64,000 nt of DNA from the NCBI GenBank assembly GCA_050250045.1, contig JBFWPK010000014.1, forward strand, positions 20,841-84,840, given 5' to 3'. Source of the stretch: Pyrinomonadaceae bacterium. GTDB lineage: Bacteria; Acidobacteriota; Blastocatellia; Pyrinomonadales; Pyrinomonadaceae. Made by a program: the position numbers and the translations under genes. The notes under the pieces were generated by a model that was not told where the DNA came from, made no database searches, and saw only the letters and a list, made by a program, of their open reading frames with translations. Numbering within the stretch: position 1 is the stretch's first letter; each line of letters begins with the position of its first letter. Positions 57,398 through 64,000 of the stretch are shown here, one piece after another.

Positions 57398-57594
57398 GAG
57401 CAACAGGCCTTCCTGAGAATCTGCTTTCGGCGGTTTGATTATACGCGAGACCGGCGGGAAAGAAAGCGGCGGCTCGCGACAACTTTTGCCACCCGCGGCG
57501 GCTTGCCATAGAATGGTGATGGCACTCAAAAAAATGCGGGCCGCGTTCAAACCGCGTGTGCCGGCATTGTCCGCCTGGCCGCGAGACTTCTCAA

Positions 57595-59004
57595 ATGCTT
57601 ACAAAAAACTCCTACCTCGAATATTTGCGCTGTCCGCAAGAGTTTTGGCTCAATTTTCATCACCCTGCGGAAACTGAAAAGGAACTGACGCTTGAGCAGG
57701 AAGATCGCCGCCAGGCCGGATTTGAAGTCTTGCAGCTTGCGAAAAAGATGTCGATCTTCAGCGGATCGAACGGCCTTGTCGAATTTCACCGCATCTTCGC
57801 GACCGAGCACATCAAAACCAGCACCGACATCACCGTAACCGATCGCGCGACCCGCGACCTTTCTATCTATGAGGTGAAGTCCGGTGCGAGCGTTAAGGAC
57901 GAGCACGTTGACGATGTCGCTTTCCAGAAAATGGCGGCTGAAATGCTCGGGCACACGGTCGCAAAAACTTATGTGATCACGGTGGACACCGCCTACACCA
58001 GAAACGGCGAGATCGATCCTGACAGGCTGTTAAAAATCCACGACGTCACCAGCGAGGTTGCGGCAAAGCACGACGAGACGATCAAAAACACAAAAGCGGC
58101 GATCGATCATCTAAAAACTCAGCCCGGGCCCGAGCTAAAACTCCATTGCGCGGAGAAACTCGATTGCGGATTTATCCGATATCATTTTGCCGATATTCCG
58201 GTTTATAACGTAACGCACATTGCGCGCCTAAAGCATGAAAAATGCGCCGACTTGATCGGCCGCGGCATTCTTGACATCCGCGACGTTCCCGCGGATTTTC
58301 CGCTGACCGGCAACCAGCGAAAACAGGTCGAGGCGGCACGAGCGGCCGAGCCCGCAATTGACCGCGCGGGCATCCGAAGTGAATTGGACAGCCTGACATA
58401 TCCGCTCCATTTTCTCGATTACGAAAGTTTCATGCACGCCGTGCCCAAATTCGACGGCACGCGGCCGTATCAGCAGATGGTGTTCCAATATTCGCTCCAC
58501 ACCATCGAACAGCCGGGTGCGGAGCCTGTGCACAGCTTTCACCTTTCAAGAAACGACGGCGCATTCCCGCCGCGCGAGATCGCCGAAAGCCTGCACCAAC
58601 GCCTCGCCGGCCAGCTCGGCACGGTCGTCGTCTGGAACGCATCTTTCGAAAGAAAACGGAACGAGGAAATGGCCGTAATGTTCCCCGATCTCGCCGATCT
58701 GTTCCTGGAGATGAACGACAACCTCTTCGATCTGGAAACGATCTTTTCAAAAGGCCTCTATCTCCACGCGGGTTTCCTCGGCAAGACTTCGATAAAGAAC
58801 GTCCGGCCCGTCCTCTATCCCAAAGCCTCCTACCGCGACCTCGATATTCCCGACGGCACCACCGCCGCCATCCGCTGGTACCAAATGGCCGCCAAACACG
58901 TCAACGCCCCCGAAGCCCAAAACATCTACGACGCCCTCTGCCAATACTGCCACCTCGACACACTCGCCATGGTCGAAATATTCAACGTCCTGCGAGATCT
59001 CTGA
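57595..59004 (+). CDS. DUF2779-domain protein (PD-(D/E)XK plus exonuclease-like)
   Basis: MLTKNSYLEYLRCPQEFWL N-terminus is typical of DUF2779. IYEVKSG nuclease-like motif. C-terminal YCHLDTLAMVEIF. Confidence 0.7.
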   Translation: MLTKNSYLEYLRCPQEFWLNFHHPAETEKELTLEQEDRRQAGFEVLQLAKKMSIFSGSNGLVEFHRIFATEHIKTSTDITVTDRATRDLSIYEVKSGASVKDEHVDDVAFQKMAAEMLGHTVAKTYVITVDTAYTRNGEIDPDRLLKIHDVTSEVAAKHDETIKNTKAAIDHLKTQPGPELKLHCAEKLDCGFIRYHFADIPVYNVTHIARLKHEKCADLIGRGILDIRDVPADFPLTGNQRKQVEAARAAEPAIDRAGIRSELDSLTYPLHFLDYESFMHAVPKFDGTRPYQQMVFQYSLHTIEQPGAEPVHSFHLSRNDGAFPPREIAESLHQRLAGQLGTVVVWNASFERKRNEEMAVMFPDLADLFLEMNDNLFDLETIFSKGLYLHAGFLGKTSIKNVRPVLYPKASYRDLDIPDGTTAAIRWYQMAAKHVNAPEAQNIYDALCQYCHLDTLAMVEIFNVLRDL

Positions 59005-59008
59005 CCCT

Positions 59009-59249
59009 TGCAAAAGCCCGCTTAAGGTGCAAAAGCCCGCTTAAGGTGCAAAAGCCCGCACGAAGTAAGGGCGAAACATTCAACGCCATGCAGAAGCCCG
59101 CACAAGTAAGGGCGAAACATTCAACGCCACGCAGCGGCCCCGCACGAAGTAGGGCGAAACATTCAACGCCATGCAGAAGCCGCGCACGAAGTAAGCGGCG
59201 AAATATTCAACGTTTCGATCAAGACCTTACTACGTGCGGGCCTGAGCAT
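59009..59249. repeat. tandem array of family C half-elements closed by one inverted arm
   Basis: Two truncated units and four full units of TGCA(A/G)AAGCCCGCACGAAGTAAGGGCGAAACATTCAACGCCA (about 43-bp period), then ..CCTTACTACGTGCGGGCCTGAGCA. Confidence 0.85.
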
Positions 59250-59324
59250 CCCGTCTTCACGGGCCTCCGCAAGTCCCGCGCCCGCGACTCCCGAAGCTCA
59301 AAATCCCACCCCAAGCCTTCCCAG

Positions 59325-59555
59325 AACCATTCTCAGTTAACTAAAACTCATTCCCACAATTGTGAAACTCTTCTGAGAACTCAAAAAGTCACCCTCACAA
59401 CTCCAAAACCCGCTCTCACAATTGTGAAAGCCATTCTCAGTCAACCAAAAGTCGTTCTCAGTTAACCAAAAGCCATTCTCACAATTGTCAGAATCATTTT
59501 CAGTTAACCAAGAGTCATTCCTAGAACTTCAAAAGTCCTTCTCACAGGTCAAAAC
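59325..59555. repeat. tandem array, 11 units of exactly 21 bp (AT-rich; TTCTCA core)
   Basis: Example units are GCCATTCTCAGTCAACCAAAA and CCCGCTCTCACAATTGTGAAA. Units alternate between palindromes TCACAATTGTGA and AGTTAACT. Confidence 0.88.
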
Positions 59556-59598: not shown

Positions 59599-62319
59599 CT
59601 ACTTGAATTCACGAAAGGATTCGAGAATGGCCCCGAAAGTACTTGGGTTGTGTTTTTCAAAGCCTTCTTGATCGATGTATACAAAGTCGTAACTCGTCTC
59701 CGACCGGGCCGCGTTGACATCAGAGCACCACTGCTTCAAGCGGGCCATTTTCTGGGGTAGATCGATCTCTTCGCGGCCCTTTGTCTCTACGATCACGATC
59801 AGGTCGCAGCGGACCTTTACAAGAAAATCAGGATAATAGTTCGAGATATCGCCGTCGGCCTTCACGTAATCCAGTTTGAAATTCACCGCAAAGTAGTTTT
59901 TTGCAAAAGATATTATGTCGTCGCAGCCTTCGAGAAATGTCGCGAATCCAAGCTCGAATCCTTGATCACCAATGATCCGATTAAAAACGCTTTTCTTCGG
60001 GACAAGATACGGCTGGCTTTTTGCGACGAACGGCCTTACATTCCTTAGTTTAATCGAGTCCCGTATCTCAGCCTCGCCTTTGTCTCTGACGGTAAGTTCG
60101 TTGATCCCTTTCTTGAATGCATCCAATGTCGTCTTTGTTGCGGGCATCTCCGAAAGATTGCGCAGTGTGTTCGGATGCTCCAGATCGACGGTTTTTCCGA
60201 AAAGCTGTTCTCCGACAAATGCCTTTACTTTCGGGTACAACGCGTCATATCCACTTACGAGTTTAAGATCTTTCATAACCGTATGTGCAAGGTAGCCGAT
60301 GACACTGCGATAGTCCGCGATCCCGGCTGTGTCGAGCACGACCGTGTGATTGACTTCGCCGGTTGTCATCTTTTTGAAAACGATCTCTCGCTGTTCTTCT
60401 TCTGAGAACTCGTGATATTGAACGATCTCATGGCCTAACCTTGAAACATCGAGTTCCGACAGGTTTTTGTATTCACGATAAACGCGCGGTGAGAGCACAG
60501 GAATTTCGATATCCAATTCGTCGAGGTCCTTTTTCTCGTTTTCCCGGTCAACCTCGACGACTATCGGCTTTCCGCCCTCGCCTCCTTCGCCCATCGGTTT
60601 CCGTTCAAATACAACACCCTCGGCCTGGATCGACTCAACAAAATCCATAAAGGCCTCAGTCCCGATAACGCTAACTTCTTCGTCCGTTTCGCCGGAGTAC
60701 ATTTTCCGAAGTCCGCGGCCAAGCGTTTGTTCGGGCAATATTTTGCTCGTCGCGGCGTATGGCCGAAGCCCGACGATCGTTGTTACGTTCTTAACGTCCC
60801 AGCCTTCTTTAAGCATCATCACCGAAACGATCGCCTTCGCCGGCGAATCCCAACCGTCAATGTTGTTTGCTTGTTCTCGGAGAAGTTTAAGTTCTTCGGC
60901 GCTTCTGCCGCTCGCGGATTCAGATATCTCGCCGTTGCTCTTGGTGTGAATAACGAACGTCGCGTCGCCCGCGAGTTCAGGGCACGTTCCGCGAAGATAT
61001 TCGGCAACGTCGTCGCAGTTCTTCGTATCGTCAGTCATTACGAAAAGTATCGCTTTTTTGCCGGCCTTTTCGTGCTCGTCATACGCTTTTTTCCACTCGA
61101 TGACGCCGAGATCGAGATAATCCGAATACTTCTCGGTATATTTTGCGGTCTGCTTTTCTTGCAGTTTCGCGCGACTCGCGGCGTCGGGCAGGACCGGATG
61201 TTTAACGACATTCTGCGAGATGGCCTCGACAAGAGGATAGTCTGAAATTGTCTGAACAAATATCGCGCCGTTATTGTGTTTGGGCGTCGCGGTCACATCG
61301 ATCTGCAGTGACAGCGCGTCGTCTTTTTGCAGCAGCTTGTTATGAATGTCCTGGATCGATTTGAACCACGCCATCCGCTCGTCGTGAATATGGTGCGCCT
61401 CATCGTTCAGCACCATCAATTCATCGATATCTCGGACGATCATCCCGAGATCGACCTTCGAATCCGTAGTTTTTCCCGTTGGACGAGGGCCGAGAAAATA
61501 GTCCATCGTGTTCTCGTCGTCAAACGACGGCGCCACGTCATCGCCGGAATAAACTCGATGAATGTTTGTCAAAAAAATATTCCCTGTCGGGCGAACGACC
61601 CTCACTTCATCCTGTACGTGAAGCGTAAGCTGAAAATCATCTCGCCAATTTTTGCCGTCATACCCATTGTTCGGCAGAACCGGATCGTGAAAAAAGATAT
61701 CGAGTCCCTTAAAGTCTTTGTAAATACGATCGAGAACGATGATGTTCGGGGCGATGACCAGAAAATTTCGTGACAGCCGCGAATCCGCCTCGTATGTCTT
61801 ATTAAAGAAACTCCACGCCAGAGCAAGGCTCAAAACCTTTGTCTTTCCCGCGCCCGTCGCCATCTTGACGACATAACGCTGCCACGTTTCGGGAAACATC
61901 TGCGCAGTCAGCGGCGCGCTTGGCGCCAACGCCATCAGATCGAATGCGCTTCTTGCCTTCAGAACTTCGTAAAGATAAACGATCGTCTCCAGAGATTCCC
62001 GCTGGGCAAAGTAATACTGAAACTCGAATGCTGGTGCATTTACCTTTTCGATCAGATGCGGTTCGTTGAACCACCAGTTCAATAAACTTCTGCTCGTGTC
62101 CGTCGCTCCCGTATATCCGCTATCGCGAAATTCTTTCACGCGTTTGCGCAATTCCGGAACGAGCGGCGGCATCAATTTCTCCATTGATGTATCGCGCAAG
62201 GTTTCGTCCGCCGGAAACCAGCGGATCGCGGGATCGAGTATCGCGTGCGGCGATTTTGGAAAATCAGGGTGTAATGCCATAGCTGGTATCGGTTCCGTCC
62301 CTGAAAGGGACATATTCAA
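59599..62319 (-). CDS. type III restriction enzyme Res subunit (SF2 helicase plus C-terminal PD-(D/E)XK)
   Basis: Walker A MATGAGKTKV, DEAH-type LNDEAHH, C-terminal YYPDFLV...IVETKG. The true start is possibly MALHPDF at 62280, because the first 13 codons lie in a REP hairpin. Confidence 0.88.
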   Translation of the reverse strand: MNMSLSGTEPIPAMALHPDFPKSPHAILDPAIRWFPADETLRDTSMEKLMPPLVPELRKRVKEFRDSGYTGATDTSRSLLNWWFNEPHLIEKVNAPAFEFQYYFAQRESLETIVYLYEVLKARSAFDLMALAPSAPLTAQMFPETWQRYVVKMATGAGKTKVLSLALAWSFFNKTYEADSRLSRNFLVIAPNIIVLDRIYKDFKGLDIFFHDPVLPNNGYDGKNWRDDFQLTLHVQDEVRVVRPTGNIFLTNIHRVYSGDDVAPSFDDENTMDYFLGPRPTGKTTDSKVDLGMIVRDIDELMVLNDEAHHIHDERMAWFKSIQDIHNKLLQKDDALSLQIDVTATPKHNNGAIFVQTISDYPLVEAISQNVVKHPVLPDAASRAKLQEKQTAKYTEKYSDYLDLGVIEWKKAYDEHEKAGKKAILFVMTDDTKNCDDVAEYLRGTCPELAGDATFVIHTKSNGEISESASGRSAEELKLLREQANNIDGWDSPAKAIVSVMMLKEGWDVKNVTTIVGLRPYAATSKILPEQTLGRGLRKMYSGETDEEVSVIGTEAFMDFVESIQAEGVVFERKPMGEGGEGGKPIVVEVDRENEKKDLDELDIEIPVLSPRVYREYKNLSELDVSRLGHEIVQYHEFSEEEQREIVFKKMTTGEVNHTVVLDTAGIADYRSVIGYLAHTVMKDLKLVSGYDALYPKVKAFVGEQLFGKTVDLEHPNTLRNLSEMPATKTTLDAFKKGINELTVRDKGEAEIRDSIKLRNVRPFVAKSQPYLVPKKSVFNRIIGDQGFELGFATFLEGCDDIISFAKNYFAVNFKLDYVKADGDISNYYPDFLVKVRCDLIVIVETKGREEIDLPQKMARLKQWCSDVNAARSETSYDFVYIDQEGFEKHNPSTFGAILESFREFK

Positions 62320-62378
62320 TAGCGTCGGGTATCACCCGACGAAAGATGTCAAAAAAGGGTTCCGTCCCTGAAAGGGAC
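62297..62378. repeat. REP-like hairpins downstream of the Y1 transposase gene
   Basis: GTCCCTGAAAGGGAC (62297-62311), GTCGGGTATCACCCGAC (62324-62340), GTCCCTGAAAGGGAC (62364-62378). Confidence 0.85.
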
Positions 62379-62382
62379 GAAC

Positions 62383-62835
62383 TTAATCCCAAATATATTT
62401 CTCGTCAAATTCGATCTCGTACTTCTTAAAGAAAACTCGCATTTCGTCCTCAAACAATTTTTTTCGATGGTGCTCCAATTGATCCTCGATATATCGTTCG
62501 ACGTCTCGAACTTGCGTGTGCCCAACTGTGAATGCTGCATAACCGTCCTGCCATGCAAATTTTGTCAACATTCCACCGCCAGTTTTCATCCACTTTGAAG
62601 AATCCCGCTTGATGGCACCGACCAGATCCGGGATCAGGAAATTCTTGCCGACGGAGATCAAAAGATGAATATGATTAGCCGTGCCTCCTGCTTTGAGCAA
62701 TCTGCCTCCAAAGTTGCGGACGATACCGCCGATATAGGCAAACAACTCCGCCTGTTTCTCGGTAGGGATCAGATCAACACGATTCTTCGTTGAGAACACG
62801 ATGTGAAAATACGCGTTGAATATCGTTTGGGCCAT
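62383..62835 (-). mobile_element. IS200/IS605-family Y1 (HUH) transposase, RAYT-like
   Basis: MAQTIFNAYFHIVFSTKNR. HUH motif ANHIHLL. Catalytic Tyr context VERYIEDQ. ATG at 62835. Flanked by hairpin repeats. Confidence 0.85.
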
Positions 62836-62848
62836 CGGTTTTGTGATT

Positions 62849-63151
62849 GTCCCTGAAAGGGAGTCATTCAATAGCGTCGGGTCCAACCCGACGCTAACCA
62901 ATCATAACGCCCGCACGTCCCTGAAGGGGACGAACGGAACGGCGGTGTTATTCGTCCCTTACAGGGACGCGTCTCTCTGTTCCGTCGTGTCGTCGGGATG
63001 CTCCCGACGTTTAAAGATCATAACTCCCGCACGTCCCTGAAGGGGACGAACGGAAACGCCGTGTCGTGTGTCCCTTACAGGGACGCGTCTCTCTGTTGCA
63101 TCGTGTCGTCGGGATGCTCCCGACGCTATTAACTTTGTCCCCGTTGGGGAC
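62849..63151. repeat. REP-like hairpin array upstream of the Y1 transposase gene, including two 116-bp tandem units
   Basis: GTCCCTGAAAGGGAG + GTCGGGTCCAACCCGAC repeats the left flank in direct orientation. Units at 62910-63009 and 63026-63125 each hold GTCCCTGAAGGGGAC, GTCCCTTACAGGGAC and GTCGGGATGCTCCCGAC. GTCCCCGTTGGGGAC is at 63137-63151. Confidence 0.88.
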
Positions 63152-63157
63152 GATGTC

Positions 63158-64000
63158 TCAAACACTCACCTCAACGATCGTCATCGTATCGTTGCCAAAA
63201 ATATCGACGACCTTTACGGCGATCTTCCTGCGGCCGGGTTCGCATTCATGGAACACCGATTTCAATTCGATCGAACGGTCGCGTTTTGTGCGGAATGACT
63301 GCCATTCATTCTCAAATATATAATCGCCCGTCCAGACATCTTCATATTCGACCAGTGCCTGTTGATCCGCTTCCATACCCGGCAGTTTGTCGTCGGAGAT
63401 CAAAGGCTTTCGAATCGTTTCTTTTTTGCTTTCGTAATTAAAATCCACCGACCAATAATCAACCCAATCGGTCCATTTTTCGGTCAGAACCTCGCGGGTA
63501 ACTATTCCGTCCTTGTCTTTTGAGACCTTTATTATCTTTCCGGCTTCGACGACGATCTTCGATGCTTTATTTTTCAGCGACTGCTCGGCGTTTGCGACCG
63601 AATCCTGTGAATAAAAGACCGAAAAATCCGTGAGCTCTATCGCGACGGTTCTGCCCTTTATATGCGGCCTTACTTCTATATAAGAAACGTCGTGGAAAAC
63701 GACCTGATTCTTTTCGACAGCGCGTTTGTCGAATACTTCGGCGGGAATGTATTTTAACGAAAGGTCTATGCCAAGCGCCGCAGGGTCGATAACGGTAACC
63801 TCTTCTTTTTCATCCTTGTCCGTTTTTCGTTTACGTCGAATGGACGGGACAAGGCCCATTTCGAATTCAAAGCCGAGAATATCGATGCGGGTGATATGTT
63901 TTTGGACGCACTCACCCAGCACCTCTTCGACAAAGAGCCTCGATACCGGCAAATTGACCGGGCCGATCGCGACGAGGCGGCCGGCCTTTTTTCCCTGGAA
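63158..64000 (-). CDS. C-terminal part of a DNA methyltransferase (type III Mod-like), continues past window end
   Basis: The frame is open to position 64000 (FQGKKAGRLVAIGPVNLPVS...). The C-terminal tail ...VVDIFGNDTMTIVEVSV resembles what I recall of N6/N4 methylases paired with Res helicases. Catalytic motifs are outside the window. Confidence 0.6.
   Translation of the reverse strand, partial: FQGKKAGRLVAIGPVNLPVSRLFVEEVLGECVQKHITRIDILGFEFEMGLVPSIRRKRKTDKDEKEEVTVIDPAALGIDLSLKYIPAEVFDKRAVEKNQVVFHDVSYIEVRPHIKGRTVAIELTDFSVFYSQDSVANAEQSLKNKASKIVVEAGKIIKVSKDKDGIVTREVLTEKWTDWVDYWSVDFNYESKKETIRKPLISDDKLPGMEADQQALVEYEDVWTGDYIFENEWQSFRTKRDRSIELKSVFHECEPGRRKIAVKVVDIFGNDTMTIVEVSV

Follow-up and report, generated by a model that had tools for sequence, protein, structure and literature searches.

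Small HUH/Y1 enzymes that act on hairpin DNA are known from several bacterial systems, some of which are mobile and some of which are resident. The TnpA transposases of IS200/IS605 insertion sequences (IS), such as those of IS608 and ISDra2 (PDB 2VIC, 2XM3), use hairpins as recognition elements. The repetitive extragenic palindrome (REP)-associated tyrosine transposases (RAYTs) of E. coli (TnpAREP; PDB 4ER8; PMC3479197) and Pseudomonas (PMC3116915, PMC5581495) are single-copy Y1 proteins with inverted palindromic flanks. Together with their REPs they form REPtrons, and inverted REP doublets (REPINs) lie elsewhere in the same genomes. Class 2 RAYTs are marked by a Y-x3-NP motif and the IS200 enzymes by W[TS] and Y[IV]ENQ (PMC6006769). 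TnpAY1 subclass 1.2, known from Cyanobacteria and Bacteroidetes, is characterized by DH[IV]H, WQ and YIKNQKEHH motifs, a length of about 148 amino acids (aa) and a 30-aa tail (Quentin, Siguier, Chandler, Fichant 2018, BMC Genomics 19:475; PMC6006769). It was described with 1.7 copies per genome, 36% identity between copies, and neither REPs nor IS200-type end structures (PMC6006769). Additionally, accessory genes of the PrrC, RhuM, Fic/DOC and HEPN families are known to be embedded in restriction-modification (R-M) operons (Anantharaman et al., 2013; PMC3710099). Here we describe a Y1 gene that lies with its own hairpin repeats between the mod and res genes of a type III R-M system of a Pyrinomonadaceae bacterium (Acidobacteriota). 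The DNA analyzed (the window) is a stretch of 64,000 nt, G000:C14:20841-84840, from contig JBFWPK010000014.1 of assembly GCA_050250045.1, which comprises 4.3 Mb in 45 contigs and is 96.6% complete. With a probability of roughly 0.7, we read the mod-res spacer as a REPtron-like passenger, made up of a subclass 1.2 enzyme and its cognate repeats, in a permissive R-M junction.

The Y1 gene (62383..62835, minus strand; Pfam Y1_Tnp 3.6e-24) encodes 150 aa and has the same orientation as mod and res, as a preliminary description of this DNA had it. The key residues of its product are H55-I-H57, W95-Q96 and Y115-IED-Q119-LE-H122-H123; beyond them the protein ends in a helical tail of about 30 aa. H57, W95, Q96, Y115, Q119 and H123 are invariant in 42 homologues, H55 and H122 are nearly so, and the tail is also conserved (F128, E131 and others). 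A confident AlphaFold (AF2) model, with a pLDDT (predicted local distance difference test) of 89.9, places two helices, 128-138 and 145-149, C-terminal to the Tyr helix. By the published signatures and the ranking of PDB matches in sequence and fold, TnpAY1 subclass 1.2 is the group that the enzyme fits. It shares with that group the Y-x3-Q-x2-HH motif (here YIEDQLEHH), the HuH and WQ motifs, the length with the conserved tail, and the low copy number with low identity between copies. The HuH motif is N54-H55-I56-H57, where the published DH[IV]H has a D first, and the paralogues carry D, N, Q or T at this position. The class 2 RAYT motif Y-x3-NP does not occur in this protein, which has YIEDQ instead. 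In a fold comparison with the PDB, the first 29 places go to IS200/IS605 TnpA (E ~2e-9), which also gives the best sequence matches, whereas E. coli TnpAREP (4er8) ranks 30th at 1.7e-5. The HUH motif and the catalytic Tyr (Y115) are placed equivalently in the alignment to ISDra2 and IS608 TnpA. The modelled enzyme is thus nearer to IS200/IS605 TnpA than to the E. coli RAYT. The earlier label "RAYT-type" suits the single copy, the stable locus and the inverted flanking repeats, but not the sequence or the fold. Public annotations of close relatives are similarly divided between 'IS200/IS605 family transposase [Pyrinomonadaceae]' and 'RayT'.

The likeness to IS608 and ISDra2 TnpA, which are the nearest folds, brings up a rival explanation in which the insert is an ordinary autonomous IS200-type IS that arrived recently, with the two direct modules as its left and right ends. 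The protein reaches 62.4 bits with the NCBIfam model NF033573 (transpos_IS200; cut-off 55), a model that does not distinguish subclasses 1.1 and 1.2, and same-strand module copies bracket the gene at this locus as IS200 ends would. Copy number argues otherwise. A tblastn and Pfam search of the whole assembly found ten subclass 1.2 paralogues with 28-44% identity, none of them identical, and no second copy of the spacer gene above 44% identity. The preliminary description had itself pointed to a multi-copy IS200 without REP dispersal as the contrary case, and its copy part does not hold. At least one such gene is found in 113 of 120 congeners, where the closest orthologues are 59-69% identical to the spacer Y1. 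One orthologue (P0072) was recovered on 23 contigs from many samples with constant neighbours on all of them, and five orthologues have a common upstream gene. Further, the bracketing copies are just 87% alike, the flanks are inverted rather than direct in most orthologues, and the dispersed items are doublets without a gene. There is no tnpB, and the protein has WQ and Y-x3-Q-x2-HH with an extra HH motif and a tail in place of the W[TS] and Y[IV]ENQ of IS200. Because identical copies are absent and orthologue loci are stable, the spacer Y1 is best read as a resident single-copy gene and not as an active IS, and we consider the IS200 explanation quite unlikely.

Some of the related Y1 genes have neighbours of their own. 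The paralogue at G000:C26:60147-60578 and the orthologues at L021 and L023 are directly upstream of one kind of gene (MKI.LKEITVRELADGY…), and Y1 elements may often adjoin defence-type genes. The paralogue at G000:C20:39.9-40.9 kb has tandem arrays of a 17-19-nt unit (…GAATTGCCACTAGCTTC…) on both sides, besides its hairpins.

The repeats that accompany the gene have a composite unit. It spans about 85 nt and contains a central hairpin, hpB (CGTCGGG-N5-CCCGACG), with a 5' ATAG foot, and it is flanked left and right by an auxiliary hairpin, hpA (GTCCCTGAAAGGGAC). A REPIN consists of two such units in inverted orientation, with six hairpins in about 190 bp. The spacer contains the Y1 gene, two direct copies of this hairpin module and a 116-bp tandem duplication, and its order on the plus strand is res, module M1 (62297-62378), Y1 in antisense, module M2 (62849-62931), a duplicated REPIN centre, an inverted module (63070-63151) and mod. 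M1 and M2 are F-form modules on the plus strand. M2 is directly 5' of the Y1 ATG, and M1, the second direct copy, lies in the interval from the Y1 stop to the res ATG. The module at 63070..63151, identified from sequence repeats and single-stranded DNA (ssDNA) folding, is an F form on the minus strand with the order hpA1 GTCCCCAACGGGGAC, AAAGTTAATAGC, hpB GTCGGGAGCATCCCGAC, N23 and hpA2 GTCCCTGTAAGGGAC. M2 as inner half and this module as outer half constitute a REPIN. The direct repeat that brackets the Y1 gene covers 45 nt (62297-62341 and 62849-62893; 87% identical; family D5). The hairpin module of the preliminary description is thus real, but the unit has three hairpins where two had been given. 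The two 116-bp tandem units reported there were also recovered at 62875..63106 by self-comparison (repeat D1) and by Tandem Repeats Finder (TRF): 62875-62990 and 62991-63106 are 83% identical, and TRF gives a period of 116, 1.9 copies and 90% matches. They arose from one internal duplication of the REPIN centre, from hpB to the next hpB. The duplicated centre has the order hpB, N23, hpA2, N22, hpA2', N24 and is bounded by the palindromic hpB stems. The motif CGTCGGG-N5-CCCGACG occurs four times in the window, always at this locus, and never in 100 shuffles; GTCCC-N5-GGGAC has 7-8 copies at the locus. The hairpin segments fold as ssDNA with z of -4.6 to -5.9 against shuffles, and they also fold well as RNA.

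The same unit recurs around related genes. Twenty orthologous loci in the genus have a module, the gene and an inverted module. Module F, just 5' of the ATG, consists of hpA1 (GTCCCYGAAGGGGAC), AATNNAATAGC, hpB (GTCGGG-N5-CCCGAC), about 22 nt and hpA2 (GTCCCTGAAAGGGAC), and module R, its reverse complement, lies just past the stop. Inverted modules alone adjoin the gene in 16 of the 20, whereas the locus described here has two same-strand modules. Its layout of REPIN, gene and same-strand module is also found at L020, L021 and L023, in mirrored form at L024, and at L035. All ten paralogues in the genome are flanked by the three-hairpin layout, each with stem sequences of its own. A [A/T/G][T/A]AG foot is at or near the 5' side of the central hairpin in seven of the ten paralogue modules, and it is GTAG in one (C6:36700). 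The GT[AG]G foot of RAYT repeats is not at hpB of the module described here, where the foot is ATAG. The locus resembles the described REPtrons in its single-copy Y1 gene, its inverted palindromic flanks, the inverted doublets elsewhere (here in congeners), the several enzyme-repeat pairs per genome and the lineage-stable locus. It differs from them in having a three-hairpin composite in place of one hairpin, and 0-24 motif copies per genome in place of tens to hundreds. Compared with the published subclass 1.2, the difference is that every copy here is flanked by inverted three-hairpin modules and that gene-less doublets are dispersed in congeners.

The dispersal was followed with an ATAGC+hpB motif, which occurs in 51 of 121 congeners and reaches 24 copies in G069 (the maximum), 19 in G021 and 17 in G063. 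The reversed control pattern gave no match in the same 121 genomes. Many of the copies are convergent pairs 117-125 bp apart, and 20 convergent doublets align as six-hairpin REPINs. Genomes that carry a 59-69% identical orthologue (n = 20) have a mean of 6.4 motif copies and the other 100 a mean of 0.9, a comparison among relatives that are not independent. Stem pairing is maintained across 64 aligned units. In this set 98.7% of cells pair and nine pairs have compensatory changes (84 cells), a level reached by none of 500 shuffles, and sliding of the partner strand lowers pairing to 40-57%. Twelve of the units have G-T wobbles at pair 60-64, and these are found on the module's own strand regardless of the local gene direction. 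Because the wobbles keep to that strand, they hint that module recognition is strand-specific.

The good folding as RNA also fits a different view, in which the hairpins act at the RNA level, as terminators or mRNA stabilizers, or are protein-binding sites unrelated to Y1, and the gene merely lies among them. One of the hairpins resembles an intrinsic terminator, and host roles of this sort are known for classical REPs. We regard this view as very improbable. The hairpin sets differ among the ten diverged paralogues, and every one of these genes has the three-hairpin layout to its left and right. With modules inverted about the gene, transcription would yield the complement at one of the two. 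The wobbles track the module strand and not the direction of local genes.

Several observations weigh against the reading of the spacer as a REPtron-like passenger. The covariation set is partly biased, given that the search pattern dictated the hpB stem and hpA2 was selected for best pairing; hpA1 is the only unbiased helix, and it has double changes in four of six pairs. Outside the locus, this genome has one degenerate solo unit (C1:282563-282650), and because the repeat family barely spreads here, current mobilization in this genome is unsupported. REPINs also occur in some congeners that have no close orthologue (G082 and G010, for instance), and the link between enzyme and repeat is correlative. 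Additionally, NCBIfam assigns the protein, above its cut-off, to the IS200/IS605 transposases, and the published description of subclass 1.2 states 'REP: no' (PMC6006769). The architecture, the stem covariation, the single copy, the stable locus in relatives and the REPIN dispersal in congeners are direct observations. The way in which the system would work is modelled on IS608/ISDra2 TnpA and on E. coli TnpAREP. On this analogy the enzyme would be a HUH/Y1 single-strand DNA nuclease-ligase that binds to hairpins folded from one of the two DNA strands and nicks and rejoins beside them. Gene-less REPINs would thereby spread at low frequency, and the enzyme may, rarely, relocate its own gene.

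The genome also contains other kinds of Y1 gene, namely class-2-like genes with Y-x3-NP and four class-3-like genes (NH[VA]H … NYVxNxQGD). The preliminary description had noted that the GGTAG core of the repeat families A and B in the window recalls the GTAG recognized by E. coli REP-associated transposases, and had asked which enzyme mobilizes them. Repeat cores within 1.2 kb of a Y1 gene were counted and compared with expectation. For family A (108 genome cores), 10 cores were observed against 0.07 expected at the class-3-like gene C35:19062. Similarly, family B (54 genome cores) gave 4 against 0.03 at C4:138773 and family C (47 genome cores) gave 6 against 0.03 at C1:265355, both of which are class-3-like, and family D (83 genome cores) gave 4 against 0.05 at the class-2-like gene C22:19010. 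No core of families A-D lies within 1.2 kb of the spacer Y1. The spacer Y1 was considered as mobilizer of families A and B and rejected, as their cores cluster at other Y1 genes and none is within that distance of it. The class-3-like genes are likely to form the REPtrons of window families A-C, and the other Y1 genes are candidate mobilizers of the GGTAG families. Class-3-like genes lie inside high-copy arrays at C35 ~19.0 kb, C4 ~138.8 kb, C1 ~265.4 kb and C10 ~116.0 kb, the last within an array of a fourth GGTAG-bearing family. At C22:16754-19990, a class-2-like Y1 domain (…YIHKNPVKAGL…) is in frame within a 1079-codon open reading frame (ORF), the ends of which resemble acyl-CoA synthetase. 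On either side of its Y1 part, this ORF has repeat-encoded peptides (RNADTLVRNEGR…, ADKSVRVP = family D), which recur once further along.

The position of the element between mod and res can be compared across homologous systems. In 185,579 species genomes, the search recovered 80 res homologues with 70-85% identity; these span many phyla, so the R-M family is widely transferred. The nearest is from a Pyrinomonadaceae metagenome-assembled genome (L034, 85%). At 68 loci mod is upstream of res. Twenty of these junctions are tight, so uninterrupted junctions, which the preliminary description had suggested looking for in relatives, do exist. The other 48 (~70%) contain inserts, with spacers of 221-3897 bp. 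The inserts include KilA-N genes (15 and one remnant), Bro-N/DinD-like genes (about 14, decayed pieces included) and MNT-HEPN pairs (6). Single or rare inserts are YhcG, 23S_rRNA_IVP, DUF559, GIY-YIG, a Fic-motif protein and ATPase-containing pairs, and the congener G017 has RhuM in the junction. Two loci, L035 (Pyrinomonadaceae, res 75%) and L075 (Nitrospira), contain other subclass 1.2 Y1 genes that are 38-40% identical to the spacer Y1, each with its own, different hairpins. These comparisons indicate that the mod-res junction is a general, high-turnover cargo slot. Of the options raised earlier, that of a tolerant site fits best, because exactly this junction is occupied at 48 of the 68 homologous loci. 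The element would occupy the junction since the junction tolerates cargo. An empty site within the genus was not found: res homologues are present only in G008, where the contig ends in res, and in G017, which carries RhuM, and the 63% identical homologue of G033 has no mod upstream. Among the 185,579 species genomes there is no relative of the R-M system above 85% identity, and hence no true pre-insertion allele.

Individual junctions show the variety of this cargo. At L034:3786-5001 the junction holds a 23S_rRNA_IVP (four-helix-bundle) gene, with long GAGATTT/GGGATTT heptamer arrays on both sides. Decayed Bro-N/DinD-like fragments lie in the junctions of L106, L058, L078, L089 and L094. At L106 the fragment adjoins a newer GIY-YIG gene, and this pairing of an old fragment with a newer gene shows turnover of cargo in the slot. 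Three res homologues (63-72%), at L011 (G033:C97), L057 and L074, have no recognizable mod in the 5 kb upstream, and G033 has a histidine kinase there. Such res genes may be orphans, or they may belong to systems whose partner gene is different. The spacer Y1 shares with the accessory genes known from R-M operons its form, a small gene between the subunit genes of an intact operon, and the slot of its relatives holds RhuM, MNT-HEPN, KilA-N and Bro-N. Those accessory genes are thought to add layers of defence, whereas a Y1 gene with its own repeats is more simply seen as a selfish or domesticated passenger.

The host operon itself is intact. It is a type III pair, a Mod methyltransferase followed by a Res helicase-nuclease on the same strand. 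The 3' part of mod is at 63158..64000 (minus strand; Pfam N6_N4_Mtase 2.4e-43); the gene extends past the end of the window and is complete on the contig with 780 aa. The res gene (59599..62280, minus strand; Pfam ResIII 7.8e-15) encodes 893 aa, aligns full-length to the 80 homologues and starts at ATG 62280 (MALHPDFPKSP...). Counted from the mod stop (63158) to this ATG, the spacer is 877 bp long, and the length of about 840 bp given before applies only with the longest res ORF. That ORF starts at TTG 62319, within the last hairpin. All 80 homologues align from residue 1 of the ATG-62280 protein, and the G033 homologue (63% identical) begins MSLHPDFP.... The 13 codons of repeat sequence that had been assigned to the start of res are therefore an artefact of ORF extension from the upstream TTG, which the homologues do not use. 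The coding start has not been remodelled, as homologues at 63-85% identity begin at the residue of 62280. Beyond the res stop, at 59009-59555 of the window, two tandem arrays lie between res and a convergent DUF2779 gene (57556-59004; Pfam 5.9e-35).

What has changed is the junction upstream of this start. The 20 uninterrupted relatives have a mod that is 4-10 codons longer (…GGKK), with GGAGG within this extension and its stop overlapping the res ATG (…ATAATG). The mod described here ends ...IVEVSV then TGA, without the GGKK tail. Hairpin DNA precedes its res ATG with no well-placed Shine-Dalgarno sequence, and both the overlap and the GGAGG site are lost. Additionally, a terminator-like site at 62351..62381 (minus strand), a 9-pair stem TTCGTCCC/GGGACGGA followed by a T6 run (ACCCTTTTTT), begins 2 nt past the Y1 stop and about 70 nt ahead of the res ATG. 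A scan of the spacer found no sigma-70-like promoter, with a sigma-70 model that is uninformative for this phylum. Because the overlap and the ribosome-binding site are replaced by hairpin DNA and a terminator-like site, translational coupling of res to mod appears lost, and transcription termination ahead of res is possible. Together these changes may lower res expression.

Such changes, the lack of a sigma-70-like promoter in the spacer and the recurrence of Y1 genes in the junction at L035 and L075 would also suit an insert that is integrated in the R-M system, either as a regulatory spacer through which res is uncoupled from mod or attenuated relative to it, as the preliminary description had proposed, or as a nuclease that contributes to defence. 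At least ten unrelated gene types occupy the junction, so no function specific to Y1 is needed to account for its presence there. Orthologues of the gene lie mostly in unrelated contexts, and the T-run after the hairpin is not conserved in orthologous modules. We consider an integrated role unlikely. Under the passenger reading, the effect of the element on the R-M system is probably incidental and neutral.

A bolder proposal goes further than the passenger reading. It holds that subclass 1.2 enzymes would be REP-guided nuclease-ligases that recognize the three-hairpin unit and an NTAG foot, and that REPINs would serve as landing pads for re-insertion of the gene beside a pre-existing REP, by which a 'domesticated' gene could still move. 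The arrangement of REPIN, gene and same-strand module, seen here, at L035 and at four orthologous loci, would be the footprint of such re-insertion. Further, mod-res junctions would be favoured sites where the module with its terminator also tunes the res/mod ratio, and the ten pairs of this genome would form a specificity matrix. We hold this wider proposal to be doubtful.

The REPtron-like reading extends biology of the REP/REPIN type to a Y1 subclass that had been reported as REP-less, and to the Acidobacteriota. The three-hairpin unit and the REP/REPIN association of subclass 1.2 are new. The comparisons also document a high-turnover cargo slot at the mod-res junction of a type III R-M family that is widely transferred. 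Annotation of this junction should therefore allow for genes in it, and res ORFs should not be prolonged into repeat DNA. From the ten enzyme-hairpin pairs of this genome and the hundreds present in the genus, the code by which these proteins recognize their hairpins could be read.

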